Source of the DNA: a virus
Taxonomy: Duplodnaviria > Caudoviricetes
DNA length: 64,000 nucleotides
Direction: 5' to 3' (one strand)
IMG/VR virus record: IMGVR_UViG_3300037400_002156
Location: 64,001 to 128,000 of that record
A program made the position numbers and the translations under genes. The first letter of the stretch is position 1; the number at the start of each line of letters is the position of its first letter. The notes below the pieces were generated by a model. The model ran no database searches and was not told the origin of the DNA. It saw nothing but the letters and a program-made list of their open reading frames with translations. Shown here piece after piece: positions 8,421 to 57,550 of the stretch.

Positions 8421-8588
8421 TTAGCGGTTTCTGAAGCGCTCAACTAATGATCTCTTTTTTGGAGATTCATTATTTTCGTGTTCACGCTCAAGATCTTCAT
8501 TCATCATTTTTTCTAAACGATTCATGCGCTTTTCGATTATAAGAGCACGTTTCTCATCATCAGAAAGCTTCTCATATTTATTTGCCAT
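8421..8588 (-). CDS. 55-aa protein carrying the shared coiled-coil leader motif (not in ORF track)
   Basis: MANKYEKLSDDEKRALIIEKRMNRLEKMMNEDLEREHENNESPKKRSLVERFRNR; GAGG RBS; terminator downstream. Confidence 0.75.
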   Translation of the reverse strand: MANKYEKLSDDEKRALIIEKRMNRLEKMMNEDLEREHENNESPKKRSLVERFRNR

Positions 8589-10042: not shown

Positions 10043-11515
10043 TCATTTACTGCCTTCAGATTCTCCACCTTCTTGTATTTCACCTGTTGAAAGTTTGTGA
10101 AGATTTAAAGCATCAACAATATCTTCATCATTAGAAACACGATTAAGAAGTGCTGCCATGAGCTTTGGCTTATTTGCTACGTTAAGAGCATTCTCATCAA
10201 CACCTTTAATAAGATCAAGAATTGAATTTGTAACCTCAATCTCTGACTTTTGAATGTCTGATAAACGAGTATCTTCAGCAGTTAAGATACGAGGCATTTC
10301 AACTGTAAAACTTGGTGGAAGTATGTTGTGTATTGAACAGAACCAATAAATAAGATCCTTCAAACCTGACTTAATAATTCGTTGACACCTTTTAACAGTA
10401 CGAGCATACCTAATGTCTAATTGAGTTAACGTGGTATCACCAATACCACCAGGAGCTTCATCAGACTGTCCTAAAAACTGCTTTGGAACTTTTAATGCAC
10501 CGTAATAACGATCATCAAAGTAGTCAATATCGGCAAGAGCAGATACATTTACTTCACCGCCAACTTCTTGTACAGTTACAGCACCTTGACCATTTCTTAC
10601 AGGGAAATAAACGTTGCCGCCTGTTAAAATTGGAGATGATTTTGAACTAAATACTTCGGTACTTACATTAATTGACTGTTTCGATGAAACTGCTGTTTTT
10701 AATTCCCTCATCATTCGTGCAGTATCTTGTGAAGATGCAGCACCAACATCAACAGAGAATAAACGATAGAATGAAGATCTTGTTAAACGTGCAAGAATAA
10801 GAAGATCGTCTAGCAACTGACGTTGTTTATAATATGGTCTTGCTGCTTCAAGAAATGAAGCACCATATTGAATATATGAATCTGATGATAAATTTTCTTT
10901 GTTTGCTCTATCAGAAATGAAATGAATAAACGATCTTTCTGGTAAAAGCTTATCTGTATCTACTAAAGATTTATCTTTACTCTGTGGTCTATATAGATAG
11001 CCAAGCGGAACTCCAAAACGATATATGTGAACTACATCTTCTGGCTCTGCTATAGTAAAGAAATCGCCAACATTATACTCCTTGCGATAATCTTCGTTTG
11101 AATAATTTGTGTCAAGAAAGCACTCACCGAAAGCAACGATATTAAATGCAAGAGGATAAATAATATCGTTTATACGAAGTTTGTTCTTTAAAAAGTCTGT
11201 TACCATCTCTGCAAAATCAGGATTATCTGCTGATTCAACCCATGCAGCTAATCCTGTATCAGCATCAATCAATGATGCATCTTCAGAAATTAATTCTACT
11301 GCGCTCATCGTGACGCCGTCTTTCAACATCTCACGATAATCTGCGATACGAGAAAGTCTATCATTAGAAAACTCTCTCAATGATGTTAGAATATTATTGT
11401 CTCTATTTAAAAATAAATTTTCTAATTTATCATCTCTTGCGTCATTTGTATCTTTAATGACTTCAACTTTATTTGAGAGGCCAAATAAATTTTTAAAAAA
11501 TGATTTAAGGCTCAT
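10043..11515 (-). CDS. Portal protein, T4 gp20-like
   Basis: DYREM, LARLTRSSFYRLFSVDVG, DIDYF...ALKVPKQFL, DIRYARTVKRCQ motifs. Confidence 0.9.
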   Translation of the reverse strand: MSLKSFFKNLFGLSNKVEVIKDTNDARDDKLENLFLNRDNNILTSLREFSNDRLSRIADYREMLKDGVTMSAVELISEDASLIDADTGLAAWVESADNPDFAEMVTDFLKNKLRINDIIYPLAFNIVAFGECFLDTNYSNEDYRKEYNVGDFFTIAEPEDVVHIYRFGVPLGYLYRPQSKDKSLVDTDKLLPERSFIHFISDRANKENLSSDSYIQYGASFLEAARPYYKQRQLLDDLLILARLTRSSFYRLFSVDVGAASSQDTARMMRELKTAVSSKQSINVSTEVFSSKSSPILTGGNVYFPVRNGQGAVTVQEVGGEVNVSALADIDYFDDRYYGALKVPKQFLGQSDEAPGGIGDTTLTQLDIRYARTVKRCQRIIKSGLKDLIYWFCSIHNILPPSFTVEMPRILTAEDTRLSDIQKSEIEVTNSILDLIKGVDENALNVANKPKLMAALLNRVSNDEDIVDALNLHKLSTGEIQEGGESEGSK

Positions 11516-19531: not shown

Positions 19532-19535
19532 ATCA

Positions 19536-20174
19536 TCACTCTCGGGTGTTCTCTTGCTCTTGAAGAGTGAAATTACCCTTGTCAGCTACATATATTCTAT
19601 CTCCATATTCAATGAACTTATTATCGTGTGTGATAAGAACTATAGATAATCCTGTTTCATCACATAGTGTTTTAATAAATTCCATGAACTGAGGAACATA
19701 CAATTTAGAAAGCTGACTTAATTGCTCATCAAGAAATAAATATTTCTGAACGTCTGTATTTATAATAAAGAAGATCTGAATAATAGTTGCAATTACAACT
19801 AATATTCCACCAGCAACATTTGAGTTCTTAATAGGAATAAGATTTCCATTATCATTTAACAGAAGTTCTACACATTTTGAATTTCTCTTATCTGTAACTT
19901 TAATCTGAACAGAATAGTCTCTATCATAGAATATCTGTTTTAGACCAAGTGTTAAAAGCTCTTCTAGCTTTCTTAGAAGTGAATCAGAGAATTTACTAAT
20001 AATATCATCAATAATTGGTTTGCATAATCGTAGAGTGTTTTTCTCACATTCTAGATCACTTATTTTAGATTCAATATCTTCAATAGAATGTTTCGTATTT
20101 TCAATTGAAGACTGAATGCCACGATATTTAATTAGAAGATTTGTTAGTTCACTCTCAAAATTTTGGTCAATCAT
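19536..20174 (-). CDS. SbcC/Rad50-like ATPase, C-terminal half
   Basis: Coiled coil, then VAGG signature, YLFLDE Walker B, ITHD H-loop; no Walker A. Confidence 0.85.
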   Translation of the reverse strand: MIDQNFESELTNLLIKYRGIQSSIENTKHSIEDIESKISDLECEKNTLRLCKPIIDDIISKFSDSLLRKLEELLTLGLKQIFYDRDYSVQIKVTDKRNSKCVELLLNDNGNLIPIKNSNVAGGILVVIATIIQIFFIINTDVQKYLFLDEQLSQLSKLYVPQFMEFIKTLCDETGLSIVLITHDNKFIEYGDRIYVADKGNFTLQEQENTRE

Positions 20175-20440
20175 ACTTAAGCACTTTTTATAATAGAAGT
20201 TCTTAATTGCTTACACAACCGGCTGCGCTGGGTTGTTCTGCAAAAGTTTATTGTTTATTGAAGTTCATAATAGAAGTTTAATGATGAAGATTGTAATCGG
20301 AATTTTTTAATAAAAAGTTTTTATTGAAGATCTCATAGAGATTTTTATAATAGAGAAGTTCTTATTTGAAGATTTATTAGATTGAAGATCATAAAATAGG
20401 AATCATTTAGATTCATTGAATACAGATTCAGATTAAGATC

Positions 20441-20509
20441 TTATTTAAATAATAAATATTATTTTATATTATATAATAAATAAATATATATATATTTTAT
20501 TATTTTATT
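20441..20509. other. 69-bp A/T-only tract, candidate DNA-unwinding element
   Basis: No G or C from 20441 to 20509; abuts the tandem repeats. Confidence 0.6.
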
Positions 20510-20605
20510 GATTAGAATTTTGATTAGAATTTTGATTAGAATTTTGATTAGAATTTTGATTAGAATTTTGATTAGAATTTTGATTAGAATTTTGATTAGA
20601 ATTTT
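20510..20605. repeat. 8 perfect tandem copies of GATTAGAATTTT (candidate iterons)
   Basis: Counted directly at 20510, 20522 ... 20594. Confidence 0.95.
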
Positions 20606-20684
20606 GATTTTGAGTTTCAGCTTCTTTAGTTCATAAACGACTTATTTCAATCTTATGAACCTTCAATAATGAACTTCTTAGAAA

Positions 20685-33526: not shown

Positions 33527-34648
33527 CTATTTAGCGTAATTTTTATTAAAATGTCTCGCTAACATATCAGCAGCGTCTCTAAATGATTTCGCAGTGCCTA
33601 CTTTTTTATCATTATTTTCTAATTCAATAGAATTAGACTCATTCACTATAAGATCATAATCAGTTACATAGTCTGGGTTATATACACTTACATTTAAGAA
33701 GCCGTAGTCAGCATTATCATCTGCAATGTCAACTTCTAACTCTGGTAAATCGTATTCTGTAAAAGCTTTTTCTACCAATGATTGAATATTCTTACAATCA
33801 AAAGTAGTCAATGGAACATTTTCAAATTTACGACGTTTGCTCTCTAGTTTGCCGTTAAGAGTCTGTAATATAAACTTAGCGCATTTATTTATATCATCAA
33901 AATGAAATGGCTTTAAGCACCCAATCTTAACATTGTTATCGTTAAGTGCAGAGCAATACATATCACTACGCTTACCAGTTGTCGATGCAATTATAAAATG
34001 AATATTATTAGAGCTAGCATTATCGCGATTAGTAAGAATTATATGAAATGGTTTCTTTGATGATTTATTTACATTATCATTTGGCTCTAATCTACGTTTA
34101 ATTGACGGATATTTTGAAAAAAGCTGCTTTAACCAAGCAGCTTCATCAGTCTCTTTAGGTTTATTAAATACTTCTAAAAATTCGTCACACCTATTAGATT
34201 CTGATTTATTACGTCGTTTTAATGCAGCGTTTATTTGATCTCTTATAAACTTAGCAATCTTGTCAAGATCTTTGTCAATATTTACAGGATTCAGTACAGC
34301 TATTGGCTTAGACTTATGATCATCATCAACTACAGAGCAATACATATTATTTTTATTACTAGGAGTAGAGATTATAAAGCGTAAATTATTAAGATTTCCG
34401 TATTCTTTATCTTTAACATACAAGAATAAATGAAACACGTTATCTGGCTTGCTAGATGGAGATGAGACATTAAGATATTTACTTAAATCCGGATCTTTTT
34501 TAAATAACTTCTTTACAAATTCAGCTTGATCTTTTACTTTTGGTTTTTCTAATCCAAAGAACTTAAATTCGTTCTTAACATCATCTCTATCTTGAAGAGT
34601 TAATCTTTCAAGACGAGATAATCTCTCTTCAAGAGTAGACTTACTCAT
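33527..34648 (-). CDS. Leader-family protein with tandem duplicated domain
   Basis: LEERLSRLERL leader; two copies of a FH...FII...MYCS...AKFI domain. Confidence 0.7.
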   Translation of the reverse strand: MSKSTLEERLSRLERLTLQDRDDVKNEFKFFGLEKPKVKDQAEFVKKLFKKDPDLSKYLNVSSPSSKPDNVFHLFLYVKDKEYGNLNNLRFIISTPSNKNNMYCSVVDDDHKSKPIAVLNPVNIDKDLDKIAKFIRDQINAALKRRNKSESNRCDEFLEVFNKPKETDEAAWLKQLFSKYPSIKRRLEPNDNVNKSSKKPFHIILTNRDNASSNNIHFIIASTTGKRSDMYCSALNDNNVKIGCLKPFHFDDINKCAKFILQTLNGKLESKRRKFENVPLTTFDCKNIQSLVEKAFTEYDLPELEVDIADDNADYGFLNVSVYNPDYVTDYDLIVNESNSIELENNDKKVGTAKSFRDAADMLARHFNKNYAK

Positions 34649-34658
34649 ATGGCACCTC

Positions 34659-35102
34659 TTATCGTCTATATAACTTCTTTTCTAGTTTACGAACACGTGA
34701 CTCTAATGAAGCAGTATATTCTACATTATCTCTATAGCGATCCATCCAATCTGAATTATTTCTATTGAATGAAACGTTATCGCATTCTCCATTTTCTATA
34801 CAGTCTAAACTATCATTTACTAATTTTTCAAGATCATACTCAATCTGATCTCTCTGATTTTCAATGTCTTCAATGTCTACACCATATTGAGCAGCTAAAT
34901 CAGCAATACACTCATCAGCGTACACACTTACGTCAGTATCTTCTAAATCATATTTAAGATCTTTAATGTCATTATCATTTTTATCTAAAAAATCATTACA
35001 GTAACTATTAAACCAATTATATACATCAGCAGAAATATCATAGTTTTCATTCTTTAATAACTTTTCGAGTCTAGATATTCTTGCTTCTAATTTCTTATCC
35101 AT
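34659..35102 (-). CDS. Leader-family acidic protein
   Basis: LEARISRLEKLLKNE at N-terminus, LESRVRKLEKKL at C-terminus. Confidence 0.7.
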   Translation of the reverse strand: MDKKLEARISRLEKLLKNENYDISADVYNWFNSYCNDFLDKNDNDIKDLKYDLEDTDVSVYADECIADLAAQYGVDIEDIENQRDQIEYDLEKLVNDSLDCIENGECDNVSFNRNNSDWMDRYRDNVEYTASLESRVRKLEKKLYRR

Positions 35103-35104
35103 AA

Positions 35105-36181
35105 TTAAATCCCCATAAGTAATCTCTGATATATTGAAAACAATGCTGTTTGAAATCTTATATCACTATCAAATGAACTCATTGAAAAGTCATCCAATGC
35201 AACTTTATATAAATTCATTATTGAACGCACGTCGAATTGCTTAACAATAGCTTCAATAATAGGCTCAACTTTATATTCAGAATTAAAGCATTTCTTTGCA
35301 AGATCCAAAAATAGATTCTGATAATCATCTTTCAATAATGCAATTGGGATTCTCATAATTCTGTCAACTAATTCCATCATTACTTCTTTATGCTTTTTAA
35401 TATCTTCTGATGAAGCTCTAATATTTTTAATGAGCCATAACACTTGCGCAAAATATTTTGCTAAATATACATATCCTGACTCTTCAAGATTTAAGAAATC
35501 CTTTTCGCCAATTAACAAATATTTTTCAAATAATTTATGAGCATCTCTCATGTGCCCTTTAGAACGTAGTGCTATTAAATTAGCTACCGCTTCTGGTAAA
35601 TTGATATTCCGCTCATTAGCTATCTTATTAAGATTACTTATAACTTCTTCTTTTGACTTTGTGTGAAACTCTAATGTCAAAGATCTCGAGATAATAGTAG
35701 GTAGTATAGCACTTTTATCTGTTGTGCAGAGAACATAATAAATATTAGGCGGAGCATCCTCAAATAGTTTAAGTAGAGCAGACTGTGCTGCACGCGATGT
35801 TAAATGAAATTCGTCAAATGTAATAACACGCTTCTTACCCCTTGGGACCCATGTAAGATCTTCGTATAAATCTCTAATGTTCTCAACACGATTTACTAAA
35901 GACGAATCAAACTCGCTGTAAAATTGCGAGTTATCCAAATCCATGGTGCATGCTTCACATTTACCACATATATCGTCTGTTAAATTTTCGCATAAACACA
36001 TTCTTACAAAACATCTAGCCATTGTTGTTTTGCCACATCCATAATCTCCATTAAAGATATATACAGACGGGCCTGAATTTTTAGCTACAGATAGTAAGAG
36101 TTTTTTGTTTACATCACATCCAACAATATCTTTTAGATTTCTAGGTCTATATTCGTATGTACTACTCATATAATTTGCCAT
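35105..36181 (-). CDS. dnaX: DNA polymerase III gamma/tau-like clamp loader subunit
   Basis: YRPRNLKDIVG, GDYGCGKTT, C4 zinc module, DEFH, ALLKLFE, TIISR, GHMRDA. Confidence 0.9.
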   Translation of the reverse strand: MANYMSSTYEYRPRNLKDIVGCDVNKKLLLSVAKNSGPSVYIFNGDYGCGKTTMARCFVRMCLCENLTDDICGKCEACTMDLDNSQFYSEFDSSLVNRVENIRDLYEDLTWVPRGKKRVITFDEFHLTSRAAQSALLKLFEDAPPNIYYVLCTTDKSAILPTIISRSLTLEFHTKSKEEVISNLNKIANERNINLPEAVANLIALRSKGHMRDAHKLFEKYLLIGEKDFLNLEESGYVYLAKYFAQVLWLIKNIRASSEDIKKHKEVMMELVDRIMRIPIALLKDDYQNLFLDLAKKCFNSEYKVEPIIEAIVKQFDVRSIMNLYKVALDDFSMSSFDSDIRFQTALFSIYQRLLMGI

Positions 36182-36242
36182 ATAAAAATAATGTACTGTA
36201 TATTAAACACAGTACATTATATACACGATTATAATAGTTAAG

Positions 36243-37448
36243 TTAAACTGGCATGTTTGCTGAATCTATTGAAGCAGCACTCTTTAATAAAGAAGAAATC
36301 TTTTTATTAGATGACAGTGAAATAGCAGTATCACCATTTTTGTTAGTAATATTAGTATCTGCTCCTAACTTAACAAGCAGTTTAACTGTATCGTAATCTC
36401 CATTCTTAACGGCGATCATTAGAGCAGTGTTTCCATTTTTATCTTGCGCATCAATATTAGCACCAGCTTTTATAATCCGTTTAGTAACGTCATCATTAAT
36501 TCCAGCATCTACAGCGTGCATTAGCGCATTCATTCCTTTATTATCTGTTGCATTAACATCAGCGTTAGCTCTAATTAAAACAGAAGCAATGTTGTTACAC
36601 CAATTATCTATAGCATAACATAATAAAGGCATTTCATTATGTGTAATATTTGGATTAGCACCAGCTTTTAAAAGAACTCGAACAATAGGTACACTATCAT
36701 CATCTTCACTGTAGTATACTAATGGATAGCCATCTGCATCACTTTTCTTGTTTACATCAGCACCAGCTTCAATAGCTTTCTTTATTTTTGAAATGCTGTA
36801 TGAGAATAGCATTTCCTGAATACTTTCTTGTGATTTCCATTCATCTAATACAGACATTGCTATATTGAAAGATGTACCAGACTCACATCCTATATTTGCA
36901 CTTCTAGTTTTTAAGAATTTATAATACACTAGATTTTGTAATTTATCTGCATTTTTCTTTAGAGTAACAAGATCTTTTTCTTTTGTTAAGTCATGACAAG
37001 CAGCAATGTCAAATCTTATTTCTTTAATATATTTTGAAATATTTTTAATCGGGCCCTTTACAGCTTCTTCCATTTCTCTTCTTTTAGGATCATCATAATC
37101 TTTTAAATTACCATCTTCATCAAAGCCAAAATCATTATACGGACCAATTTTATAGTTTTCAGATAGTTTATCACCATCAACAACAAGCTGTACTAAAACG
37201 GTATCATCATCGCGTGAGTCAAGCACAAATGTTCCACTGCGTGTAAATGAAACATATTTATCACTATTATGAATCCAGTTTTGATATTTACCAGAGGCAG
37301 CCAGTTGATCATGTGGTAGAATATATTTTAAATATGAATCTAAAGTACATACGTGATATAGAGTACCAACTTGTTTTGCTTCAAATTTTCTTAATAGAGT
37401 ATTTTCTATTCTATCAAGTTTCTTTTCTAATAACAGTAATCTATTCAT
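36243..37448 (-). CDS. Leader-family protein: ART-like domain plus ankyrin repeats
   Basis: LYHVCT...VSFTR...EMEE, then about 5 ankyrin repeats (GNTALMIA). Confidence 0.75.
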   Translation of the reverse strand: MNRLLLLEKKLDRIENTLLRKFEAKQVGTLYHVCTLDSYLKYILPHDQLAASGKYQNWIHNSDKYVSFTRSGTFVLDSRDDDTVLVQLVVDGDKLSENYKIGPYNDFGFDEDGNLKDYDDPKRREMEEAVKGPIKNISKYIKEIRFDIAACHDLTKEKDLVTLKKNADKLQNLVYYKFLKTRSANIGCESGTSFNIAMSVLDEWKSQESIQEMLFSYSISKIKKAIEAGADVNKKSDADGYPLVYYSEDDDSVPIVRVLLKAGANPNITHNEMPLLCYAIDNWCNNIASVLIRANADVNATDNKGMNALMHAVDAGINDDVTKRIIKAGANIDAQDKNGNTALMIAVKNGDYDTVKLLVKLGADTNITNKNGDTAISLSSNKKISSLLKSAASIDSANMPV

Positions 37449-37554
37449 TTATTTTCTCCATATAATTAAGTATGGTAGAATTAATTTAATTATTTAACAA
37501 ATTAAATAGATATATAAAAGCGCATAGATTTAAATCTATGCGCTAAACTTATAA

Positions 37555-38841
37555 TTAGTCTACCTTAATTTTAAGAAGTTTAACAACTTTCTGGTATGCT
37601 GCCATATCATTATCATCAATATAATCGATAATCATATCTCTCTTATTAGCTGAGCAATTTGCAAATGCTTTCTTTGCGGCAGCATTATTTTTATTACTTA
37701 AACACATAATAACAAAATCACCAATTATACGAGAGCTTAACTTCTTAGTGTCCATTCTTTCTGCAATTACTTCAATAAGCTTCTTTGGAACATCATCGTA
37801 GTTTTTAATACGAGTTAATAGTCCACGTGAACCGGTTAAAAAGCCTTCATCAAATTTAACATCATCCATTTCACTACTTAAATAGCTTGCTACATCATAA
37901 AGACGTCTTGTCATTGAACCTCTAAAGTAAATTGGCATAATTGGAAGATTGCACCAAGTAACTAAGAAGTCAATTATGTTTATGCATTTAATCTGATCTT
38001 CTGGTGAACATGATACTATAGCATTCGGTATAAGGCCATAAGTATTATTTTCACCAGTAAGTGTAGAAGCTATAGATTTAAACCGAGCTAACGCGTCTTT
38101 AATGTCATTTCTATCAATAAATCCAAGCTCTTTTTCTTTTGCAGTTAACGTGACTTTCATATCACCACACATAACTCTTAAGCTATCATAGTTTAATTTA
38201 ACTGCATGTGCTAACATAATTTCTTTAATTTTTTCTTTATCTGTGATATCGCTAGCGTATCGTTTTATCATTGCTTTTACAGTCTTAGGATCTTCACTTG
38301 CAAGAGCAACATAAACATCTTCAATAGAAGCCGCTAGTTTTGATGTATCGATGTCATCATCATAGTCAAGAGCACCAATAGCTCCAACATTTGATTTCTT
38401 ATCTTTTACATCTTTACCTTTATCATCTAAATCTAGCTCACGTATGTCATCATCTTCTTTATCTGTAGAAGCTTTATTGCCATTTTTACTAGGATTATCA
38501 TCTAAATCTAACCCAGCTATACGGGCATCAGCTTTATCTGATGTACCTATTACATTTCTACTTTTTTTACTAGGATTATCATCAAAGTCAAGCAGTCGAA
38601 GCTTACCATCGCCTCCAACTTCAACATCTCCGGCACCAGTTTTTACAGCAGCATCATCAAATAAATCTAGTTCGCGAACTGCTGCATCAACTTCACCTTC
38701 AGATGGGACATTAACATCAGCAGTAATATCATCAAGATCTAATGTGTCAAATCGGTCTTCAAAACGTCGACCTCTACCACGAGTTATGTAATCGATATAT
38801 TTCTCAAAAGACTCATTTGTAACTACTTTATATTTTTTCAT
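37555..38841 (-). CDS. Hypothetical protein with acidic LD(L/F/Y)DD repeats
   Basis: Six motif copies in the N-terminal third. Confidence 0.65.
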   Translation of the reverse strand: MKKYKVVTNESFEKYIDYITRGRGRRFEDRFDTLDLDDITADVNVPSEGEVDAAVRELDLFDDAAVKTGAGDVEVGGDGKLRLLDFDDNPSKKSRNVIGTSDKADARIAGLDLDDNPSKNGNKASTDKEDDDIRELDLDDKGKDVKDKKSNVGAIGALDYDDDIDTSKLAASIEDVYVALASEDPKTVKAMIKRYASDITDKEKIKEIMLAHAVKLNYDSLRVMCGDMKVTLTAKEKELGFIDRNDIKDALARFKSIASTLTGENNTYGLIPNAIVSCSPEDQIKCINIIDFLVTWCNLPIMPIYFRGSMTRRLYDVASYLSSEMDDVKFDEGFLTGSRGLLTRIKNYDDVPKKLIEVIAERMDTKKLSSRIIGDFVIMCLSNKNNAAAKKAFANCSANKRDMIIDYIDDNDMAAYQKVVKLLKIKVD

Positions 38842-38859
38842 ATTTAATTCTCCAACAAA

Positions 38860-40749
38860 TTATAAATCATACTTATCTTTAGGTTGATTTTGAGCTACTC
38901 TAGCAGCACGCTGCTTTAATTGTCTAGCAGTAAGGTTACTTGCATTATTAGGATCATTTATCGCTTCTTGAATATCTTCATCCAATAGAATTTCTGGGTG
39001 TTGTGTAATATACTGCTCGCAATCACGTGACCATTCATCTTCACTAATTTTACGCAGTATTTTATCAATCATGTAATCATCATCATCTGAAAGACGATAT
39101 GGATTATTATTGCGATTATTTTGAATAGCTGCGTCTATATCATAGCCTAGTCTAGTAGCAACCTGTCTAAATATGTCTGACGCAGGAATATTTGTCATAC
39201 CGTCAATAACCTGCTGGCCAAGTCCAATGTCGAAGATATACTCAATAAAATATTCATTTGAAGATGTTATAATATCACGTACAGTTAAAGGCGACATATG
39301 ATATCTTGATTTAAGATTGTTACCAAGTATTCTACATAATGCTCGCGTAGTTGCTTCATCTCGTGTATGAGCTATAGTGTCAATAATATCTGAAAAATCA
39401 TTATTATTTTCTAAAAATCGTCTATGTGATTTTGCGATCTTATTTAAAACTGAGATATTACCATTATTTTTTGCTGAGTACATTAGATTTTTTAATTGAT
39501 TTTTGTTAGCATCTTTAATAAAATCATCAGTAACAAAATCGTATATAACATCTAGTGGCTTATTTAAAGCAAGACATATATTACTAGCTTGAGTTAAGAA
39601 GTTTTCAACGTTAACTACTTTTAAAGTACCATTACTGACTAATTCTATAAGATCATATAGCTTCCGAGTTACTCCGATATTTTCACGATAATCTGCAGTA
39701 GCGTAGCCTCTAAAGTTAGGTAAAGGTGGCATTACACCAGCATTTTTGAATTTATCTGCTAATATACTAAAGCCTTTTGCAAATTCTTTCATAATAGAGT
39801 CAGATCTGACAGATAAGTATAAATTTTCAGGATTGTCTGCGACTATTAGCTTATCAACTATACTTCTATATGCTGATTCTTTGATGTGACCTAATAAAAA
39901 GTATGGCAATATAGTATTATTAAAAATATCAAACCATAAGCTATATTGGCGATACAATGATCTAGCACCATCTGGAATTAATGATAATAAAATATCATCT
40001 TCGTATATACCACGTTTAATAGCGCAAACTATTAAAGGATCGCCACGATTTAAATCAAACAAAGATCCTGCTGCTCCAGCGCCGTGACTAATAAGTTCAC
40101 GTAGACCATCAAGATTTTTACGATCCATTGCGACAATTACAACAGGTTTGTTTCCATCTTTCTGATTAGGATTAGCGCCATTATCTAGTAATAGCTTAAT
40201 AATTTGGCCAGTTATATTCTTAGAATCTCTACATGCATAAACAAGTGGCGTAACACCTTTCTCATTTGGCTGATCAACTGGCTGTCCAGCATCAACTGCC
40301 GCTTTCACTTCTTCATATTTTCTTGAATATAAGTTAGGTGTTACCGTTCTCTGTCTTGGCTCACGTGGAGCTCTTGGTAAACGTCTTGCACGAGTTGGTG
40401 CTGGCTCTTCATTAGCAACAGTGTTATCTGCGTTAGAATTAGCATTAGTACTATCTCTCTGTATAACACCAGCATCTTCCCATTCATAGTTTGGATTAGC
40501 TGAGTACATGCCATTCTGTCTAAATAGGCATCTTTCTCTAATACCATCGCTTAAAAATCTTGCTGCAGATGTATTAAAGTGATTAAGAATATCTTCAAAT
40601 GATTTTGGACCTTCATCCATTAACCATTGCCATACTTTAAAAGCAGTGCTTGGGTTTGTACCGCGACCAACTGTCTTTTCGTATACATATCTTTCTAGTC
40701 TTGCTACTCTTCTTTGTAGAGCATTTTCATATAAAGTACTGTATTTCAT
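38860..40749 (-). CDS. Leader-family ankyrin-repeat protein
   Basis: LQRRVARLERYVYE; GVTPLVYAC; ends KYDL. Confidence 0.8.
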   Translation of the reverse strand: MKYSTLYENALQRRVARLERYVYEKTVGRGTNPSTAFKVWQWLMDEGPKSFEDILNHFNTSAARFLSDGIRERCLFRQNGMYSANPNYEWEDAGVIQRDSTNANSNADNTVANEEPAPTRARRLPRAPREPRQRTVTPNLYSRKYEEVKAAVDAGQPVDQPNEKGVTPLVYACRDSKNITGQIIKLLLDNGANPNQKDGNKPVVIVAMDRKNLDGLRELISHGAGAAGSLFDLNRGDPLIVCAIKRGIYEDDILLSLIPDGARSLYRQYSLWFDIFNNTILPYFLLGHIKESAYRSIVDKLIVADNPENLYLSVRSDSIMKEFAKGFSILADKFKNAGVMPPLPNFRGYATADYRENIGVTRKLYDLIELVSNGTLKVVNVENFLTQASNICLALNKPLDVIYDFVTDDFIKDANKNQLKNLMYSAKNNGNISVLNKIAKSHRRFLENNNDFSDIIDTIAHTRDEATTRALCRILGNNLKSRYHMSPLTVRDIITSSNEYFIEYIFDIGLGQQVIDGMTNIPASDIFRQVATRLGYDIDAAIQNNRNNNPYRLSDDDDYMIDKILRKISEDEWSRDCEQYITQHPEILLDEDIQEAINDPNNASNLTARQLKQRAARVAQNQPKDKYDL

Positions 40750-40870
40750 TTATATCATCTCCATTTAGTATGTGAATATGATAGATAACTCTAACCTATA
40801 TATTGATAATAGAAAACCATACTAATTAAAATACACTCTAATTAGTATGGTTTTAATTTATTCATGTTTA

Positions 40871-42442
40871 CTACATATCATAAAGCTCATCATTGTCTTT
40901 ATTTTTATTTGCGTTATTTCTTTTATAGTTGTCTAAATAACGTATTAAAAGTCTTGCATTTGTTGATGACGAAGTAAGCTTCTTAGCCATATCATAAAAC
41001 CTTTGATCTGTTAAAAATTCTGGAAACTGTTCTGTTAATGATGCTATATTTGACACATAATGATCAGTTTCTAAAAGATTTTCAGCATCTTTAAGTCTAC
41101 GATTAATATCATAATTTAAGTCATTAAGAAGCTTATCAGCTTTAGCAGAAGACTCATCATCTTTAAGTAATTCTTTTAATTCATAAGACACTTTACTATC
41201 ATCTTGTATACAATTTGAAATGTCTTTTCCGTAACCATTATCTATAAACCACTCTAATAATTTTTTATTATGTGTCTTTAAAAGATCACGACAAATCGTA
41301 GAATCTTTCGTGATAATTATTTTATCAGAATCTTGTACAATATTTAGTATTTTACATACTAATCTAGTAATCTTACTGTTATCAGGCACATTTGCGGCGA
41401 AATGAATAACATCTTTCAAATCATATCCTAAATTTACATTTGTCTTCTTAATAATATCTCTACCATTATTGATCAGTGACTGTGCTAAGTCAATACTATC
41501 CATCACAAATGCAGATAGAATCATATCATATAAAGAGCTAGTACTTACTCGTGACAGTGCTTCTGATGTAATAATATCTGCAAGAAAGTCTATAGGTAAA
41601 ACAAGATTGTTTGCAGCATTTATAACATCACGCATGAAACAATCTGCATTATAAATGTAGCAATCATGTGCTTCTTTAGCAGCACTATATATTTTAGTAT
41701 ACACTGCTTGTGTCTTCATTCCTTCTGCATATTCACTGCATTCATAAAAAGGCCATACTTTATATTTCATTATAGCATCAAATAGATATGATGTCTTAGC
41801 AATTGCTATTTCTTCTGCTATAGGATAATCAGAATCACGACTAAAATAATTGTGTAACATTCCATTATTATTCATAATAGAAATGTATTTATTTATAAGT
41901 GCAGAATAAACTTTCTCATCTAACTTACCCCAAGAATAAATATGAACTATTCTTGCAATTACTGTAAAGTTAGATTTAGCACTTCTTCCAGCTACAAAAT
42001 CATTATCTACTAATGATAATAGTAAATTATCTTTAATACCACCATCTATCGCATAAAATAAAACTGGCTTATTTTTATATTCACTGTCTTTAAGAGAAGT
42101 GCCATATTCTAATAATAAATTTAATAGTTCTTTATTACCTTCTAGCGCAAATAAAGCAAGATATGGAGCTCCCTTTTTATCCGCTACATTCGGATTAGCT
42201 CCATTTTCAAGTAATAAAGTTATAATACCACTATCATGGTTACTACATGCTATTTGTAATGGAGTTCTTCCAAATCTGTCTACACTATTAACATCAATGC
42301 CAGCTTCAATAGCGGCTTTAACTTCTTCTATCTTTTTTGAAAAAATATTTGCTTTTGGCTTTTTAGAGCGAGAAGTAGTCTCATCTTCAAAAATAAGTCT
42401 TTCTAATATTCTAACTCTTTTTTCTAATGATATCATTTTCAC
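40871..42442 (-). CDS. Leader-family ankyrin-repeat protein
   Basis: LEKRVRILERLIFE; GRTPLQIAC; ends LYDM. Confidence 0.8.
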   Translation of the reverse strand: MKMISLEKRVRILERLIFEDETTSRSKKPKANIFSKKIEEVKAAIEAGIDVNSVDRFGRTPLQIACSNHDSGIITLLLENGANPNVADKKGAPYLALFALEGNKELLNLLLEYGTSLKDSEYKNKPVLFYAIDGGIKDNLLLSLVDNDFVAGRSAKSNFTVIARIVHIYSWGKLDEKVYSALINKYISIMNNNGMLHNYFSRDSDYPIAEEIAIAKTSYLFDAIMKYKVWPFYECSEYAEGMKTQAVYTKIYSAAKEAHDCYIYNADCFMRDVINAANNLVLPIDFLADIITSEALSRVSTSSLYDMILSAFVMDSIDLAQSLINNGRDIIKKTNVNLGYDLKDVIHFAANVPDNSKITRLVCKILNIVQDSDKIIITKDSTICRDLLKTHNKKLLEWFIDNGYGKDISNCIQDDSKVSYELKELLKDDESSAKADKLLNDLNYDINRRLKDAENLLETDHYVSNIASLTEQFPEFLTDQRFYDMAKKLTSSSTNARLLIRYLDNYKRNNANKNKDNDELYDM

Positions 42443-42560
42443 ATTCCTATATTAAGAGTGCATAAACTTATTAGTTACACTATTAAAATAATTACACTTA
42501 TTTGATATTTCTTTATACACAAAAACTCCATAACTAATTAGTTATGGAGTTTAAACATAA

Positions 42561-44039
42561 TTACATATCGTATATATCTTCTTTTTGAGTTGAAGCTATT
42601 TTGCGTTTTAATTGTCGTGATGTAGTTGTATTGTTGTTTTCTATTGCATCTAATACTAAATCATTTCTAAGAATATCTGGGTTATCTGTAACAGCTTTTT
42701 CTAAAGCTCTGTTCCATAAATCATATTTAATCGCACGTAGCAATTTATTTATAAGTGTATTATCATCATTAGCATTTGAAATAGCTCCGTAATCATTAAG
42801 TATCTCTAGACAATATTTTGCAGAAGGTTTACCAGCTAAATAATAATCTTCATCTGTACATTGTCTATATAGCTCATCAGAGAATCCTTCTTCTATAAAG
42901 TACAAAATTAAGTACTCGTCTTTTGATTCTATTACACCTGTAATTAAATTATCTAAATCCAGATCATCAAGCTCTGATATTGAATTTTTATTTATTAGTT
43001 TAACTAATAATCGTGACATTCCATAATATCGTATATCGCGTATAATATCATCAATGTCAAATTTTAATCCAGCATTAATCATACTCTGTATGATGGCTTT
43101 ATTTTTTGTATGAGCTGCATTTTCTAATAAATCTAGTAACTCATTTTCTGAAAACTCTAATAAAAATTTAGGAGTAAACATGTGATCTAAGAACTCTGTA
43201 GAATCTCCAGTTATTTTACATAGATCTCTGCATGTCTCCATAAAATACTGTATGTTGAATATAATCTTTATTTTGCCCTCTGCTGCATCTTTATAGTATT
43301 TCAATAACTCAGTTGCAGTTTCTTTGCTTATTACTCTTGTGTCTATAGATATTGTTGGAATAACATTGTACTTATCAACAATACATTTAAATGTATTCAT
43401 AATGCCATCACTGAGTTCGTATTTCATAGATGTTACATCATCTACACTATTAAACTCTGATGAGTTGTCAACGATCATCTTAATAAGATTTTCATATTGA
43501 TCTAGAGAAATTCTCTTTCTGTAATAAGCATCATAATAAAAGCTATGCACCAATGAGTTAAACTCTTGCTTCTCTTTAGAAGCAGCTAATCTAATAAGCT
43601 CACTATCTTTAGGTACATAGTCACTTTGTGAGCCTTGTGCTTGACGCATTATATAACTTGGATTTGTAATTGTATTATTAACATCATTAGCAAGAATAGC
43701 CTTCATCGCAGGCTCATTTTTTAGCTTACACGCATAGTAAAACGCATCCCACTGGCCATAGTAATTTTTATATATATCCGCACCGTGCTGCAGAAGATAT
43801 GCAATTACGTCACTATAATCTTTATCACTTGAATTTATAGTGTATGTTAATGGAGTAAAGCCCTTATCGTTCTTCTGATTTATATTTTCACCAGCATCTA
43901 ATGCAGCTTTAATTTCATCAATATTTCTTGAGAATAAGCCGGTAGATTTTTCTTTTTTAGCTTCTGCTAAAAGACATTCCAACTTTAAAAGTCTTCTTTC
44001 TAAGTTAATAAGTTTATATTCAAACATGCTATATTTCAT
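42561..44039 (-). CDS. Leader-family ankyrin-repeat protein
   Basis: LERRLLKLECLLAE; GFTPLTYT; ends IYDM. Confidence 0.8.
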   Translation of the reverse strand: MKYSMFEYKLINLERRLLKLECLLAEAKKEKSTGLFSRNIDEIKAALDAGENINQKNDKGFTPLTYTINSSDKDYSDVIAYLLQHGADIYKNYYGQWDAFYYACKLKNEPAMKAILANDVNNTITNPSYIMRQAQGSQSDYVPKDSELIRLAASKEKQEFNSLVHSFYYDAYYRKRISLDQYENLIKMIVDNSSEFNSVDDVTSMKYELSDGIMNTFKCIVDKYNVIPTISIDTRVISKETATELLKYYKDAAEGKIKIIFNIQYFMETCRDLCKITGDSTEFLDHMFTPKFLLEFSENELLDLLENAAHTKNKAIIQSMINAGLKFDIDDIIRDIRYYGMSRLLVKLINKNSISELDDLDLDNLITGVIESKDEYLILYFIEEGFSDELYRQCTDEDYYLAGKPSAKYCLEILNDYGAISNANDDNTLINKLLRAIKYDLWNRALEKAVTDNPDILRNDLVLDAIENNNTTTSRQLKRKIASTQKEDIYDM

Positions 44040-44045
44040 AGATCA

Positions 44046-46022
44046 TCATCCGTCATACTTGTTTAAATAATGTGAAACATCTTCTAAGCTGTCTAAAGAA
44101 ACTCTCTTTATTCCATTATTTTCATAATCAAAATCGTCAGCAATTACATCAGAATAGCTGCTGTTAATATCTCCAGAGTTAAATTGTGAGAGGTTAAGTA
44201 TGTCGTCAGGGTTAAATATTGTTTCTTGAGTCGTGTAGGCGTTGTATAAAGCACCTACAACTGCATCGCAACGGTCTTTCATTCCACCTGTTTTAGTCGA
44301 ACCAGGATGATCAACTTTTTGCTTCTGTCTAAACCATATAAGATCAAACAGCTCTTTTTTTATTGCGTCTGCAAACTCCTGACTAAAGTGTACTATATTC
44401 TTATAAAGACAGTCTACAAAGAACAAATACTGAGTATCTGTTTTATCAACTGATTGATATTTTACATTGAATCCATTCTCTGTTAAGAACTGTCTGCTTG
44501 CTTCACTTTGAAATTGATCAAAGCTAACTAAACCTATTCTTAACCCTAGTACATCTCGCATATATTTAATGAACTCATGACATCTTGCGATAGACACACG
44601 TTTTGGCGGAGGCGGTGGTACTATTCTTAAAGAGAAATCATAATAATATTCAGGAGTTTCAACACCGTCAACTAGCTTAGTTCCATTTTTATAACAACAA
44701 GCAATGCCGTAAGCATCTGTCGCTACACCAATATCAATATGCAAATACCTCGGACATTCTTTGTGTGGAAATTCAACACCATTAAGATAGTACTGAATGC
44801 TATTATAAAGCTCATCATTGCACGTCTCAACAGTGAATTCATTCTTAGAAAATAATGGCTGTATAGTATTATCAATACAAGATTCAAATGTTGATCTCGA
44901 TGAGAATAGTTTACCAGTAGAGCTTACACTCATTCCTGAGAAATCTTGAAGAGCTTGTATTACATTGTTTGCATAATTAGGATAAAAATCTATAGGAACT
45001 TCGTCAATTAAATTTCTATACTCCTGTGATAATTTCGCAACCGCTTCTTTTACTGTTAAACTTGGATCAAGACTTATACCTAATTTAACACTTAAATCAG
45101 ATGTGTCTTTAATGATAAACGGATCAAATTTATCATTGCCGGCAAATACAAAGAATGTCTCGTCTTTATACGTACCAGCTGGTTTAATATCCCATAATCT
45201 AGCTCTTGCATACTTGATAGAAGGATCTGTTAATGACTTTTCATATAATTTAGAAGTCATTGATGTTTTAAACGTTGAAGATGATATAACAAGATTTAAT
45301 GAATTATTAACACCGTTTGATGTAAAACGCGATGATGTTCTTGATAGTACTGCATTATATAGTTCTTCAACAGACCCTAAATCAACTTCAGAACCAGAGC
45401 TATCACCAAAGAAATTAGCCTCATCAATTACACAGCTAATACAGTTTAAACCAATCATATCTGATGTTGAACTTCCGTAGAATATTCGAATATTTTCAGG
45501 AAAATCCAACGTAGAATTTCTATACTGATTACGTCTAAATAGCTCTTTAAAATATGGAACACCATCTATTATTGAGCGTAACTGAGAAAATCCTGATCTT
45601 TCAGCTTGATACTTAGTTAAACTGAAATATAAGAACGCTGTCATTGTATTTGACATTAAACCAAATAACCCAGCAACATTTTCATAGCATGAAAGCTCAT
45701 ATAATTTTCTTAATATAATATAGAGCCCACATGTGGATTTTCCAGTTCCGATTCCGCCAGTTAATACAATTTGATTGTAGTTTTGTTTCCCATCTTTAAA
45801 TATATCACAAATTAAATCTTTCCAAAATGGATATAATTTCTTAACACAGTCATCTCCGCAGTAATATGGGTCACGTATCCATTTCTCAATTGGCACAATT
45901 TCTCTAACCTGTGTATAGTCTGATATTTTTACTTTGTCAATCACATTTGCAATTGAATCAATCTTTTTATCGCCTCTTATAATCTTTAATAATTTTTGTA
46001 CTTTTTTACTTTCTTTGCTCAT
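44046..46022 (-). CDS. terL: Terminase large subunit
   Basis: GGIGTGKS Walker A, CVIDEANF Walker B, ISS motif, HIDIG and KDRCDAV nuclease residues. Confidence 0.9.
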   Translation of the reverse strand: MSKESKKVQKLLKIIRGDKKIDSIANVIDKVKISDYTQVREIVPIEKWIRDPYYCGDDCVKKLYPFWKDLICDIFKDGKQNYNQIVLTGGIGTGKSTCGLYIILRKLYELSCYENVAGLFGLMSNTMTAFLYFSLTKYQAERSGFSQLRSIIDGVPYFKELFRRNQYRNSTLDFPENIRIFYGSSTSDMIGLNCISCVIDEANFFGDSSGSEVDLGSVEELYNAVLSRTSSRFTSNGVNNSLNLVISSSTFKTSMTSKLYEKSLTDPSIKYARARLWDIKPAGTYKDETFFVFAGNDKFDPFIIKDTSDLSVKLGISLDPSLTVKEAVAKLSQEYRNLIDEVPIDFYPNYANNVIQALQDFSGMSVSSTGKLFSSRSTFESCIDNTIQPLFSKNEFTVETCNDELYNSIQYYLNGVEFPHKECPRYLHIDIGVATDAYGIACCYKNGTKLVDGVETPEYYYDFSLRIVPPPPPKRVSIARCHEFIKYMRDVLGLRIGLVSFDQFQSEASRQFLTENGFNVKYQSVDKTDTQYLFFVDCLYKNIVHFSQEFADAIKKELFDLIWFRQKQKVDHPGSTKTGGMKDRCDAVVGALYNAYTTQETIFNPDDILNLSQFNSGDINSSYSDVIADDFDYENNGIKRVSLDSLEDVSHYLNKYDG

Positions 46023-54854: not shown

Positions 54855-55748
54855 TTAAATAGAGTCTGGCCAATTAAACTTTATTACAAGATTACGTGCT
54901 GGAGAATCTCCACCAGAAATAGGATATAGTGTTAAACTACATTTTGTCTGTCCATCAATATTACCAATGAAGAACTTTGCAGCGCCACGTCCATTACCAA
55001 TTTCATCATTCCAGCATTCATCGATAGCATCAGCAACATCATCAGCAGTTGGGTACCAACGATTAATCGCAGCATCAAGAATACCCATAGCATCAAGCTC
55101 TGCAATAGCGCGATCTGATTTATAAGACGGAGTATCTGTAAATGATGATAAAACATCTGCTACTGTATTAGCTCTAGCACCATTAGGTAGAACGCTTGCA
55201 CCTTCATTACGAATGCCGCGACTATTTCGTTTAACAGATTCAAGTCCTCTTAGCTGACGCTGTCTCTTAGCCCATGCAGCTAAACCTTTTATATCAGCTT
55301 CTCGTTGTTCACGCTCTTCATCTGTTTCGTCATCGTCATCATCTTCATCTTCGTCATCATCGTCATCCCAAGTGTCTCCCCAGTCTTCAATGAAGTCACT
55401 TGCCATATATGAAAGCATTCTTTTTATATCATTACGTCTATCTTCTAACTCAATTTCGTCATAACCAAAATCACCAATCAACCATTCAATAGCAGAATCA
55501 ACCATTGCGTCATTACGGCCTCTTGCCATTGAATACATATTCTCTCTAAACTCTTCTTCACTATCATAGTAATCTTCACCACAGAAACGATTATCAAAAA
55601 CGTCTCTAAGATCATTTTCTAATGATGAGCTACGTTTACGATGCTTTCTAATCTTATCCATATCAACATAGTCCCACATATTTTCATTTTTATGTGATAG
55701 TAATTTTTCAAGACGTTTTATTCTTTTTTCTAATGTTATATTACGCAT
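54855..55748 (-). CDS. Leader-family acidic protein
   Basis: Start MRNITLEKRIKRLEKLLSHKNE behind GGAGG; poly-D/E tract. Confidence 0.7.
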   Translation of the reverse strand: MRNITLEKRIKRLEKLLSHKNENMWDYVDMDKIRKHRKRSSSLENDLRDVFDNRFCGEDYYDSEEEFRENMYSMARGRNDAMVDSAIEWLIGDFGYDEIELEDRRNDIKRMLSYMASDFIEDWGDTWDDDDDEDEDDDDDETDEEREQREADIKGLAAWAKRQRQLRGLESVKRNSRGIRNEGASVLPNGARANTVADVLSSFTDTPSYKSDRAIAELDAMGILDAAINRWYPTADDVADAIDECWNDEIGNGRGAAKFFIGNIDGQTKCSLTLYPISGGDSPARNLVIKFNWPDSI

Positions 55749-55817
55749 GTTAAATAATACCTCCATATAATATCTGTGAACAAATATACAACTTAACAAG
55801 TAATAGATATGTTGCAT

Positions 55818-56264
55818 TTAATAGCTTGCTGATGTGCTATCAAAATAACGACTATTGCATATTACAAATTGTGCACTATTAAAATATTTAACAATTGACT
55901 CTGCAGATGTTTTAGCAGTTTCATACCCTGCAATTAAAGCAGCGCATTCTGTTTTAGAGTTTGTAAAGTTTTTAATATATTGATTTTTAATATTAAATGA
56001 TTCTCTACATTCTGGATTCATTAAATCATTCAGTATCTTTACAAGCATTGCATTTGCATGTTGTAATTTCTGAAGGGTATCACATATAACGTTGTATTTA
56101 TAGGTTGCTTCAGAAAACAACTCATAAAATCTATCTGGCGTTTTCTTTAATTCTGAGAAAGAAGGAAGAATACCTGCTGTTGGGATAACTTCACAGCTCT
56201 CTATTAAAGATCTTACATATGTATATAACTTTTGTAAAGCACTTGAGTTTGATGTAGCTATCAT
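55818..56264 (-). CDS. Hypothetical helical protein
   Basis: 148-aa ORF. Confidence 0.55.
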   Translation of the reverse strand: MIATSNSSALQKLYTYVRSLIESCEVIPTAGILPSFSELKKTPDRFYELFSEATYKYNVICDTLQKLQHANAMLVKILNDLMNPECRESFNIKNQYIKNFTNSKTECAALIAGYETAKTSAESIVKYFNSAQFVICNSRYFDSTSASY

Positions 56265-56265
56265 A

Positions 56266-56970
56266 CTATTTAGACCTATTCAAATTTGTTAGTAGATGAT
56301 ACAATGAAATTTCCTTATTAGCTTTCGATTTAACAAATTCACTTATTGCTTGCTTAATTCTTTTACCGTATCGTTTGTTTGATTGTGTAATTAATCTAGC
56401 ATAATATACTGAAGCGCCTCTTATATTCTGTGACTGAACTTTATTAAGAAATGTTAACAATGACGAAGTTATCATTGATACATTATTCTTATTAACAAGA
56501 TTAAAGAATATAGTATTTAAAACATCTGGTGTTCCAAGTATTGCCTGATATAGACTATACACAGATTGATCATCTTCTTCACTGTAAGTTAGTGGTAAGT
56601 TACTAATCAAAGATATCTTTATTTTTTCCAATAAAGCATCATAGCTCATACTGTTAAACACAGGTAACTCATTTTTATTTTTCATCTGTATATAATGAAT
56701 AGGAAGTAAATTCTTTATCAGCCCCTCATTAGTAGTAAGATCCAAATCAAAATGATGCGCATTTACTATAATCCAGTTTTGAGTAATGCTTTTAACAATG
56801 TCCAACGTATCACTCTCAAACTGTCCAGTATATATAATTCCGGAAGAGTATGGATTATACTCCTTTGTAAGATCATCTATAATTTCAAAATTTGGATGAA
56901 TAAAGTTTAAGAATTCAATGTAATCTTTATTGAAATTTATTCTCTTACACAATAGAAGATGACTATTCAT
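56266..56970 (-). CDS. Hypothetical protein, possible clamp-loader delta-like subunit
   Basis: Coupled to the delta-prime-like gene; inference from context only. Confidence 0.35.
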   Translation of the reverse strand: MNSHLLLCKRINFNKDYIEFLNFIHPNFEIIDDLTKEYNPYSSGIIYTGQFESDTLDIVKSITQNWIIVNAHHFDLDLTTNEGLIKNLLPIHYIQMKNKNELPVFNSMSYDALLEKIKISLISNLPLTYSEEDDQSVYSLYQAILGTPDVLNTIFFNLVNKNNVSMITSSLLTFLNKVQSQNIRGASVYYARLITQSNKRYGKRIKQAISEFVKSKANKEISLYHLLTNLNRSK

Positions 56971-57550
56971 AGTTAAACTCTAGCATATTTAACAACTTAC
57001 ACTGATCATTTTTTCTATATGATTTCACAAGACTATTATCGTATGCAATCAATGGATTATATTTATTATATACAAGTAATTTATCTTCATATGAAGTATC
57101 ATCAGACAGTGATGCTCCGCAGTCATTGTTAAACATCTCGCGAGCTTTACTAATATTTATAAAGCCAGCTCTATTGCCTCTATCTTGTATATAGAACTTT
57201 CTAAACTCATTTGTACGAGAAATAATAGTGTCAAGAATATTATCTCTACTTGCTAGTAATATAATATTAAGAGATGTATCATCCATAAATTTTAATAGTA
57301 ATGATTGATCTCTTTTACTCAAATATGATATATCGCTAATTATTACAGGCAGTGAATAATTTTTATAATGAGAGTACTTATCAATCAATGATATTAAATC
57401 GTCTCTATCTGTAATGTAATCAATATCATAATTGTAATTATTCTTTTTTAAATAATTTTTAAATGATAAAGATGCGCCTCCGACAAAGAGTTTATGATAG
57501 CCATGTCTTTTATTTAAAGGTAACTTATTACTATCATCTTTTATTTGCAT
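56963..57550 (-). CDS. Degenerate clamp-loader subunit (delta-prime-like)
   Basis: QSLLLKFMDD...IILLA...ILDTIISR matches the DnaX paralogue; no Walker A. Confidence 0.7.
   Translation of the reverse strand: MQIKDDSNKLPLNKRHGYHKLFVGGASLSFKNYLKKNNYNYDIDYITDRDDLISLIDKYSHYKNYSLPVIISDISYLSKRDQSLLLKFMDDTSLNIILLASRDNILDTIISRTNEFRKFYIQDRGNRAGFINISKAREMFNNDCGASLSDDTSYEDKLLVYNKYNPLIAYDNSLVKSYRKNDQCKLLNMLEFNYE

Follow-up and report, generated by a model that had tools for sequence, protein, structure and literature searches.

A coiled-coil leader on unrelated proteins of a T4-type jumbo phage as a candidate capsid-targeting sequence

The gene cluster downstream of terL

The DNA analysed here, called the window throughout, is a stretch of 64,000 nucleotides (nt) corresponding to bases 64001-128000 of the 204,068-bp IMG/VR virus record IMGVR_UViG_3300037400_002156 (Duplodnaviria; Caudoviricetes), which is about 95% complete. 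Its subject is a short heptad motif, with the consensus L-E-x-R-[ILV]-x-[RK]-L-E-x-L, that is carried by many otherwise dissimilar proteins, mostly as an N-terminal leader followed by Glu, and that may serve as a capsid-targeting tag. Nearly all genes lie on the minus strand, the GC content is about 30%, and a GGAG-type ribosome-binding site precedes most genes of the genome. A first-pass annotation of the window had listed eight proteins with the motif and proposed that it loads an effector set into the phage head. All eight exist and carry the motif, and their cores (the stretches encoding it) could be located, in each case on the minus strand. They are given below in window coordinates with the genes among which six of them lie; sizes are in amino acids (aa), and the junction is the point at which leader and body meet.

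44046..46022, minus strand: large terminase (terL), assigned by tblastn to annotated terminases; heads the cluster
42561..44039, minus strand: 492-aa leader protein; core 43968-44003; junction L-A-E; ankyrin repeats
40871..42442, minus strand: 523-aa leader protein; core 42392-42427; junction I-F-E; ankyrin repeats; C-terminal domain paralogous to that of the 38860 protein
38860..40749, minus strand: 629-aa leader protein; core 40684-40719; junction V-Y-E; ankyrin repeats; large C-terminal domain
37555..38841, minus strand: acidic repeat protein of 428 aa, no coil; its first 10 residues form a conserved peptide that ends in T-N-E, followed by S
36243..37448, minus strand: 401-aa protein; leader core 37395-37430; junction Glu23; ADP-ribosyltransferase (ART) fold at about residues 24-200; ankyrin repeats (Pfam)
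35105..36181, minus strand: clamp-loader-type AAA+ protein (Pfam DNA_pol3_delta2, E 2e-23); no leader, a negative example within the cluster
34659..35102, minus strand: 147-aa protein with a coil at both ends; N-terminal core 35055-35090, K-N-E directly after; C-terminal core 34671-34706
33527..34648, minus strand: 373-aa leader protein; core 34598-34633; K-N-E at residues 25-27; body made of a duplicated orphan domain
54855..55748, minus strand: 297-aa orphan leader protein (start revised to 55748); core 55698-55733, then H-K-N-E
8421..8588, minus strand: 55-aa open reading frame (ORF) with the best-scoring coil; core 8502-8537; M-N-E after it; basic C-terminal tail

The six members downstream of terL are interrupted by the motif-free clamp-loader gene and by the acidic 37555 protein with its short T-N-E leader. 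The 42561 gene begins 7 nt after terL and is therefore probably co-transcribed with it. The 38860, 40871 and 42561 proteins are paralogues. The duplicated domains noted in the first-pass annotation are borne out by the 33527 protein, whose internal duplication scores E 2e-17. Two members had been described less accurately. The 54855 protein carries the motif, but its annotated start lies too far upstream; the real start is an internal ATG at 55748 with GGAGG 8 nt before it, from which the leader begins at residue 6, and the protein matches no Pfam or PHROG family. In the 8421 ORF the motif is also present, but it begins at residue 18 rather than at the N-terminus. The kinase, thioredoxin, serine hydroxymethyltransferase and clamp-loader genes of the same cluster lack the tag.

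Occurrence, placement and clade

A profile was built from the motif copies and run on the whole gene set of the genome. At a score of at least 5 it finds 16 matches in about 15 proteins, against about 0.3 after shuffling; each of 20 residue-shuffled proteomes gave 0 or 1 match. The motif is a heptad-type amphipathic helix of two heptads, with hydrophobic residues at positions 1, 5, 8 and 12 flanked by Glu and Arg. The complete tag consists of this 12-residue helix and a linker, 14-30 residues in all.

Relatives were retrieved by their capsid protein: three large contigs, G001-G003, with 69-82% capsid identity, and two more distant ones, G004 and G005, with about 36%. In the studied genome (G000) 12 copies are N-terminal. 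G000-G003 together have 49 strong copies, divided into 34 N-terminal, 8 C-terminal and 7 internal or tandem ones. Every strong copy begins 5-18 residues from the start, lies at most 14 residues from the C-terminus, belongs to a tandem or marks a domain junction, and the interior of folded domains is free of the motif. The description of the motif as an N-terminal leader thus holds for most copies, but not for all, as the C-terminal copy of the 34659 protein and C-terminal and internal copies outside the window demonstrate. The tagged proteins of the four genomes fall into more than 20 families without detectable similarity between families, in agreement with the earlier description of the tag as modular. 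It had also been expected that a genome-wide scan would find the motif in the scaffold and other head proteins only. This is not what is seen: the recognised head proteins, namely the major capsid protein (MCP) and the portal, lack it, and most matches are to orphans, ankyrin proteins and enzymes; two proteins of the head module are also among them, each with a C-terminal copy.

At the DNA level, a strict back-translated pattern has 8, 5 and 10 matches in G001, G002 and G003, respectively, and none in G004 or G005; the same pattern read backwards has none in any of the five relatives. A looser pattern is near the control level in G004, G005 and Listeria phage LIS04. Since the motif is found in G001-G003 and not in G004 or G005, the tag belongs to one clade. 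Equal residues in different copies use differing codons about half the time (for Arg, AGA 18 times and CGT 17 times), which indicates that selection acts on the peptide and not on a nucleic-acid element.

The gene order is conserved in the clade: terL is followed by two or three large leader-ankyrin genes and the gene for the acidic protein, after which come the ART-ankyrin gene, the clamp-loader gene and further leader genes. The single-domain orthologues of the 33527 protein in G001-G003 all retain K-N-E ahead of the body. The C-terminal coil of the 34659 protein ends with a three-residue basic tail; in G003 the corresponding coil lies within the protein, with K-N-E and another domain behind it. 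At 38860-44039 the three large leader-ankyrin paralogues, like their G001 and G002 orthologues, have a conserved tail consisting of an S-R-Q-L-K-R-like stretch, Y-D, and a final L, M or F. This tail may be a second signal or a binding site.

The junction glutamate

In each of the 34 N-terminal leaders a Glu lies no more than 12 residues from the helix. N-E is found within 12 residues behind the helix in 24 of the 34, compared to 5% at random positions (binomial p ~1e-23). The site is mostly K-N-E, with Lys at P3 (the third residue before the predicted cut) in 21 copies; the remaining copies end in hydrophobic-x-Glu. The Glu thus behaves like a protease site, as the first-pass annotation had proposed, but the site is not of the T4 type that its comparison implied. 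The commonest form is not aliphatic-x-Glu, with I, V or L at P3 in a minority only, and a resemblance of the leader to that of T4 was not found.

The same tripeptide is present in head proteins. In the MCP, K-N-E-S occupies residues 52-55, and x-N-E followed by S or G is found in that column in 11 of 11 orthologues, distant ones included. The site lies 16 residues ahead of the first conserved capsid block; the T4 cuts lie 26 (gp23) and 9 (gp24) residues ahead of the same block. It is therefore a predicted site, placed where a maturation cut would be expected. An acidic 154-aa protein of the head module (genome 50238-50702), which ends in a coil and a basic tail, has one or two K-N-E-S at shifting positions in all four genomes, and the C-terminal extension of the protease retains x-N-E. 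A motif-like helix in that extension was discounted as evidence; it is conserved also in G004 and G005, which lack the leader family.

Conservation of the Glu is seen in 120 metagenomic homologues of the 36243 protein. Their leaders, of 14-30 residues, are highly divergent, and the junction Glu stands before [A/G/S]-K-Q-V-G in 120 of 120 and is never Asp. In T4, Asp at the position of the cut-site Glu blocks processing (PMC9026906). Orthologues in the other tagged families also retain the Glu while linker length changes. In the 37555 protein, which has no coil and no Pfam or PHROG family, x-N-E followed by S or T at residues 8-10 is retained in the G001 and G002 orthologues, and this acidic protein may be a short-leader cargo.

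Some homologues of the 36243 protein carry the coil and the Glu internally, behind a cytidylyltransferase-like or other domain. Two domains that G000 encodes in separate genes are linked by the coil in G001 and G003. Such an internal coil with Glu looks like a cleavable polyprotein joint and offers a possible origin for the C-terminal copies.

The ART-ankyrin protein and other tagged bodies

The AlphaFold2 (AF2) model of the 401-aa 36243 protein has a mean predicted local distance difference test (pLDDT) score of 93. The leader forms a separate helix (residues 2-22), followed by a short loop from Glu23 and then the body. Searched whole with Foldseek, this model gave ankyrin and DARPin chains only, and for that reason the N-domain was folded separately (pLDDT 89). 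All 50 rows of the VIA-align search and all listed Foldseek rows for the N-domain are chains of the ART superfamily. Its best structure matches are DarT (Z 8.5 over 140 aligned residues) and Tpt1/KptA (Z 8.4; Foldseek E 2e-3). The modelled N-domain thus has a DarT/Tpt1-like ADP-ribosyltransferase fold, in keeping with the ART-like domain first reported, although Z near 8 is a moderate match only. His32, Ser67, Thr69, Arg70, Tyr104 and Glu127-Glu128 are invariant in the homologues, and the N-domain has no Pfam match. In one metagenomic protein a cytidylyltransferase-like domain is fused via the coil to the ART-ankyrin body. By its domain content this fusion would connect a possible enzyme of nicotinamide adenine dinucleotide (NAD) synthesis to a putative NAD-using one. 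A paper on NAD in gut jumbo phages does not mention these proteins.

Carriers outside the window include three more ankyrin proteins, an orphan of 106 aa and a protein of 217 aa in which two copies stand in tandem. An acidic protein of 145 aa has a copy at its C-terminus, as have two proteins of the head/neck module, where the copies are weaker. A cytidylyltransferase-like enzyme (NMNAT-type fold family; genome 179818-180435) has the coil four residues from its C-terminus, and this is conserved in G003. Ankyrin repeats, present as first annotated according to Pfam, are found on seven tagged proteins. Most tagged bodies have no Pfam or PHROG match, the exceptions being ankyrin, CTP_transf_like, DUF6273 and weak nucleotidyltransferase or metalloprotease hints. 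One orphan body, at genome 1-621 and G003 19381-20634, has G-G-A-S-G-H-M right after the junction Glu in both genomes, with different linkers; its sole Pfam hint is a sub-threshold metalloprotease match.

Head genes and upstream motifs

The genome has a T4-type set of head genes, two of which lie outside the window.

Window 10043..11515, minus strand: portal, T4 gp20-type (Pfam Portal_T4, E 3e-36; phrog_213)
Genome 55002-56495: MCP, gp23-type (Pfam Gp23, E 1.4e-35)
Genome 56488-57501: S77 (gp21-type) protease (Pfam Peptidase_S77, E 5.6e-14; phrog_207; BLASTP to T4 gp21, 2.7e-8)

The portal match confirms the T4-like portal on which the earlier proposal was built, and protease, portal and MCP genes of T4 type are all present in one genome, the protease gene directly upstream of the MCP gene. 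The closest cultured relatives by capsid are Thornevirus SP-15 and Listeria phage LIS04 (about 30% identity). With its T4-type MCP and portal and these nearest relatives, the phage is by sequence not of the phiKZ lineage. No separate scaffold gene is recognised in the genome. The S77 protease is 327-350 residues long in the tagged clade and 508-530 in G004, G005 and LIS04. The extra length of the latter is a coiled-coil, scaffold-like helical C-terminal extension of about 200 residues that the protease of the tagged clade lacks.

In G002 and G003 a coil gene comes immediately after the portal gene, as it does in G000 if an HNH insert is disregarded, and the G002 protein has a basic tail like that of the 55-aa ORF. 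In T4 the position after the portal gene is occupied by genes 67 and 68. HNH-type homing endonuclease genes are found within the head region at window 8601-9908 and 13103-14203, and one such insert sits between the portal gene and the 55-aa coil gene. The portals of G001-G003 are 16-18 residues longer, with an acidic D-F-D-F-N-M tail at the end that the G000 portal ORF lacks. Just upstream of the portal gene (window 11751-13091) is a gene for a 446-aa ankyrin protein without a coil; it has V-N-E at residues 20-22 and three K-N-E in its C-terminal third.

The motif ATATC(A/T)A is found 50-80 nt upstream of the protease, terL (50 nt), tape-measure and fibre genes. It is also upstream of the 36243 (66 nt) and 40871 (67 nt) genes and of three other leader genes. 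The homing endonuclease and replication (clamp-loader) genes are preceded instead by TGTGTATA(T). The shared upstream motif is suggestive of a link between leader genes and virion genes.

Interpretation and alternatives

We favour, with moderate confidence, the view that the tag is a lineage-specific coiled-coil capsid-targeting sequence, like the capsid-targeting sequence (CTS) of T4 in function and different from it in sequence. The proposal of the first-pass annotation is thus partly supported, including the point that the tag is unlike the T4 CTS in sequence. In the mechanism that we infer, the tag helix, at the N-terminus or less often at the C-terminus or between domains, would attach its protein to a putative coiled-coil component of the prohead core during assembly of the gp23-type shell. 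The S77 (gp21-type) protease would cut after the Glu 0-10 residues behind the helix, mostly at K-N-E and otherwise at hydrophobic-x-E. The freed proteins would remain in the head and exit with the DNA at infection. The cargo would comprise the DarT/Tpt1-like ART-ankyrin protein, other ankyrin proteins, small orphans and nucleotidyltransferases.

This view is favoured because the motif is far above chance and clade-specific, is placed at termini and junctions, and is followed by an enrichment of N-E. It is favoured also because the same K-N-E is present in the MCP and in the acidic head protein, an S77 protease is encoded, and the junction Glu is invariant. Finally, core replication enzymes in the cluster are without the tag, and some junctions are polyprotein-like.

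Several observations weigh against it. Over the whole proteome [KR]-N-E occurs no more often than by chance, with 31 cases against 31 expected; the protease-site signal lies in the placement of the site and not in its frequency. K-N-E differs from the aliphatic-x-Glu rule of T4, so the specificity ascribed to the protease is deduced only. Alternatively, the Glu may be invariant for structural reasons, as part of the first strand region of the ART domain. The C-terminal copies, for example that of the cytidylyltransferase-like enzyme, are usually without a Glu after them and therefore would not be removable in the same way as N-terminal leaders. BLASTP searches with T4 gp22, gp67 and gp68 and the C-terminal extension of the LIS04 protease gave no scaffold homologue. 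ATATC(A/T)A precedes about 5 of 15 leader genes compared to about 13% of other genes, a difference that is statistically weak and confounded by operon structure, and some leader genes follow the clamp-loader gene, which has the TGTGTATA-type promoter-like motif. The motif also has a weak match to a trimerisation coiled coil (TolA_bind_tri, E 0.006), and hence resembles a generic oligomerisation helix.

The last point leads to the main alternative, which we consider unlikely, that the coil is a general oligomerisation or docking element which brings tagged proteins together in the infected cell, for example the nucleotidyltransferase and the ART-ankyrin protein, while the capsid plays no part and the Glu does not mark a cut. 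Such a role would suit a canonical amphipathic helix of two heptads that works at either protein end, the fusion of cytidylyltransferase-like and ART-ankyrin domains via the coil suggests joint action, and the two-copy proteins of 147 and 217 aa could be adaptors. However, with two heptads the helix is short for a coiled coil that is to be stable by itself. This alternative also leaves unexplained why K-N-E follows the helix at variable spacing, why K-N-E recurs at the MCP propeptide boundary and in the acidic head-module protein, and why none of the 120 homologues has another residue, not even Asp, in place of the junction Glu.

A broader variant of the capsid-targeting view is that the coil is a universal plug at either end of a protein as well as a cleavable joint, and that tagged proteins, two-coil adaptors and the acidic coil-ended protein together form the prohead core. 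In that case, which we regard as rather improbable, the tagged proteins would replace the lost protease extension, cargo and scaffold would be the same thing, and new cargo would be gained through a module of 14-30 residues.

The tagged proteins might also be blocks of prohead-core scaffold that are cut up and expelled at maturation, with no delivery to the next host. The lack of the 200-residue protease extension in the tagged clade and of a recognised scaffold gene would agree with this. So would the acidic protein of 154 aa and the small coil gene next to the portal gene, which are like T4 gp67 and gp68 in size, charge and position. But many carriers are large and folded, with 400-630 residues, ankyrin or enzyme folds and a single site at the leader junction. 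T4 Alt and the internal proteins likewise have a single site, whereas scaffold is cut many times, and we hold this alternative to be very doubtful. That the leader is a DNA or RNA element (a recombination joint or a translation signal), or reflects shared ancestry of one paralogue family, can be suggested from its location where domains have been swapped and from the seven carriers that are ankyrin proteins of one superfamily, but it is hardly credible, being largely refuted by the differing codons for identical residues and faced with at least 20 mutually dissimilar bodies that carry the tag.

If the capsid-targeting view is correct, the load-then-clip route of T4 has been rebuilt in a lineage of gut and rumen jumbo phages with a different, recognisable tag, about four times as many clients and flexible placement. 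It would provide a sequence rule to predict the injected proteome of uncultured phages. The orphan, ankyrin and NAD-linked proteins (ART fold, nucleotidyltransferases) would be candidates for host takeover or counter-defence in the first minute of infection, and so compact a tag could be used to package foreign proteins in non-model phages.

Comparison with known systems

In T4, a CTS of 10 residues is sufficient for packaging and Glu at P1 is required (PMC9026906, PMC3012670). One of the packaged proteins, Alt, is an ART that is processed at both ends (PMC9026906, PMC3012670). The likeness to the present system lies in a short N-terminal peptide that is common to unrelated, fast-evolving proteins and ends in Glu, in the gp21-family protease and the gp20 and gp23 head genes, and in a candidate ART-fold cargo that recalls Alt. 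Alt is processed at its C-terminus too (PMC9026906). In spite of these similarities, the leader sequences show no resemblance, the tag is 14-30 residues long rather than 10, and K-N-E is the commonest site, unlike the aliphatic-x-Glu of T4. There are about 15 tagged proteins per genome, compared to about 4 in T4, and the tag is also found at C-termini and internal junctions. The present system is known from sequence only.

In the giant phages phiKZ, 201phi2-1 and SPN3US, a diverged gp21 homologue (gp175/gp245) removes propeptides from many internal head proteins by cleaving behind a Glu, and these phages have families of paralogous ejection proteins (PMC5694885, PMC10052503, PMC9026906). Their sites are S/A/G-x-Glu, in contrast to K-N-E here, and a helical address tag common to their proteins is not described.

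Outside the T4 and phiKZ types, a terminal short helix or peptide with a variable linker addresses diverse cargo into a shell in the encapsulation peptides of bacterial microcompartments and the cargo-loading peptides of encapsulins. The analogy is functional only: the sequences are unrelated, as are the microcompartment shell proteins, and the tag is not removed by proteolysis there. The scaffolding protein of P22 binds coat through a basic C-terminal helix-turn-helix. The C-terminal copies here, with an acidic stretch, a helix and a basic tail, resemble that basic coat-binding end without a sequence relationship.

The literature searched yielded precedents in T4, phiKZ, SPN3US and phage P1 and no description of a coiled-coil leader of this type. 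In general terms, T4 already exemplifies the load-and-cut principle, and in phiKZ-like phages a large number of internal head proteins are known to be cleaved after Glu. The new elements here are the type of leader, the scale, a tag that can sit at either end or between domains, and K-N-E as the site.

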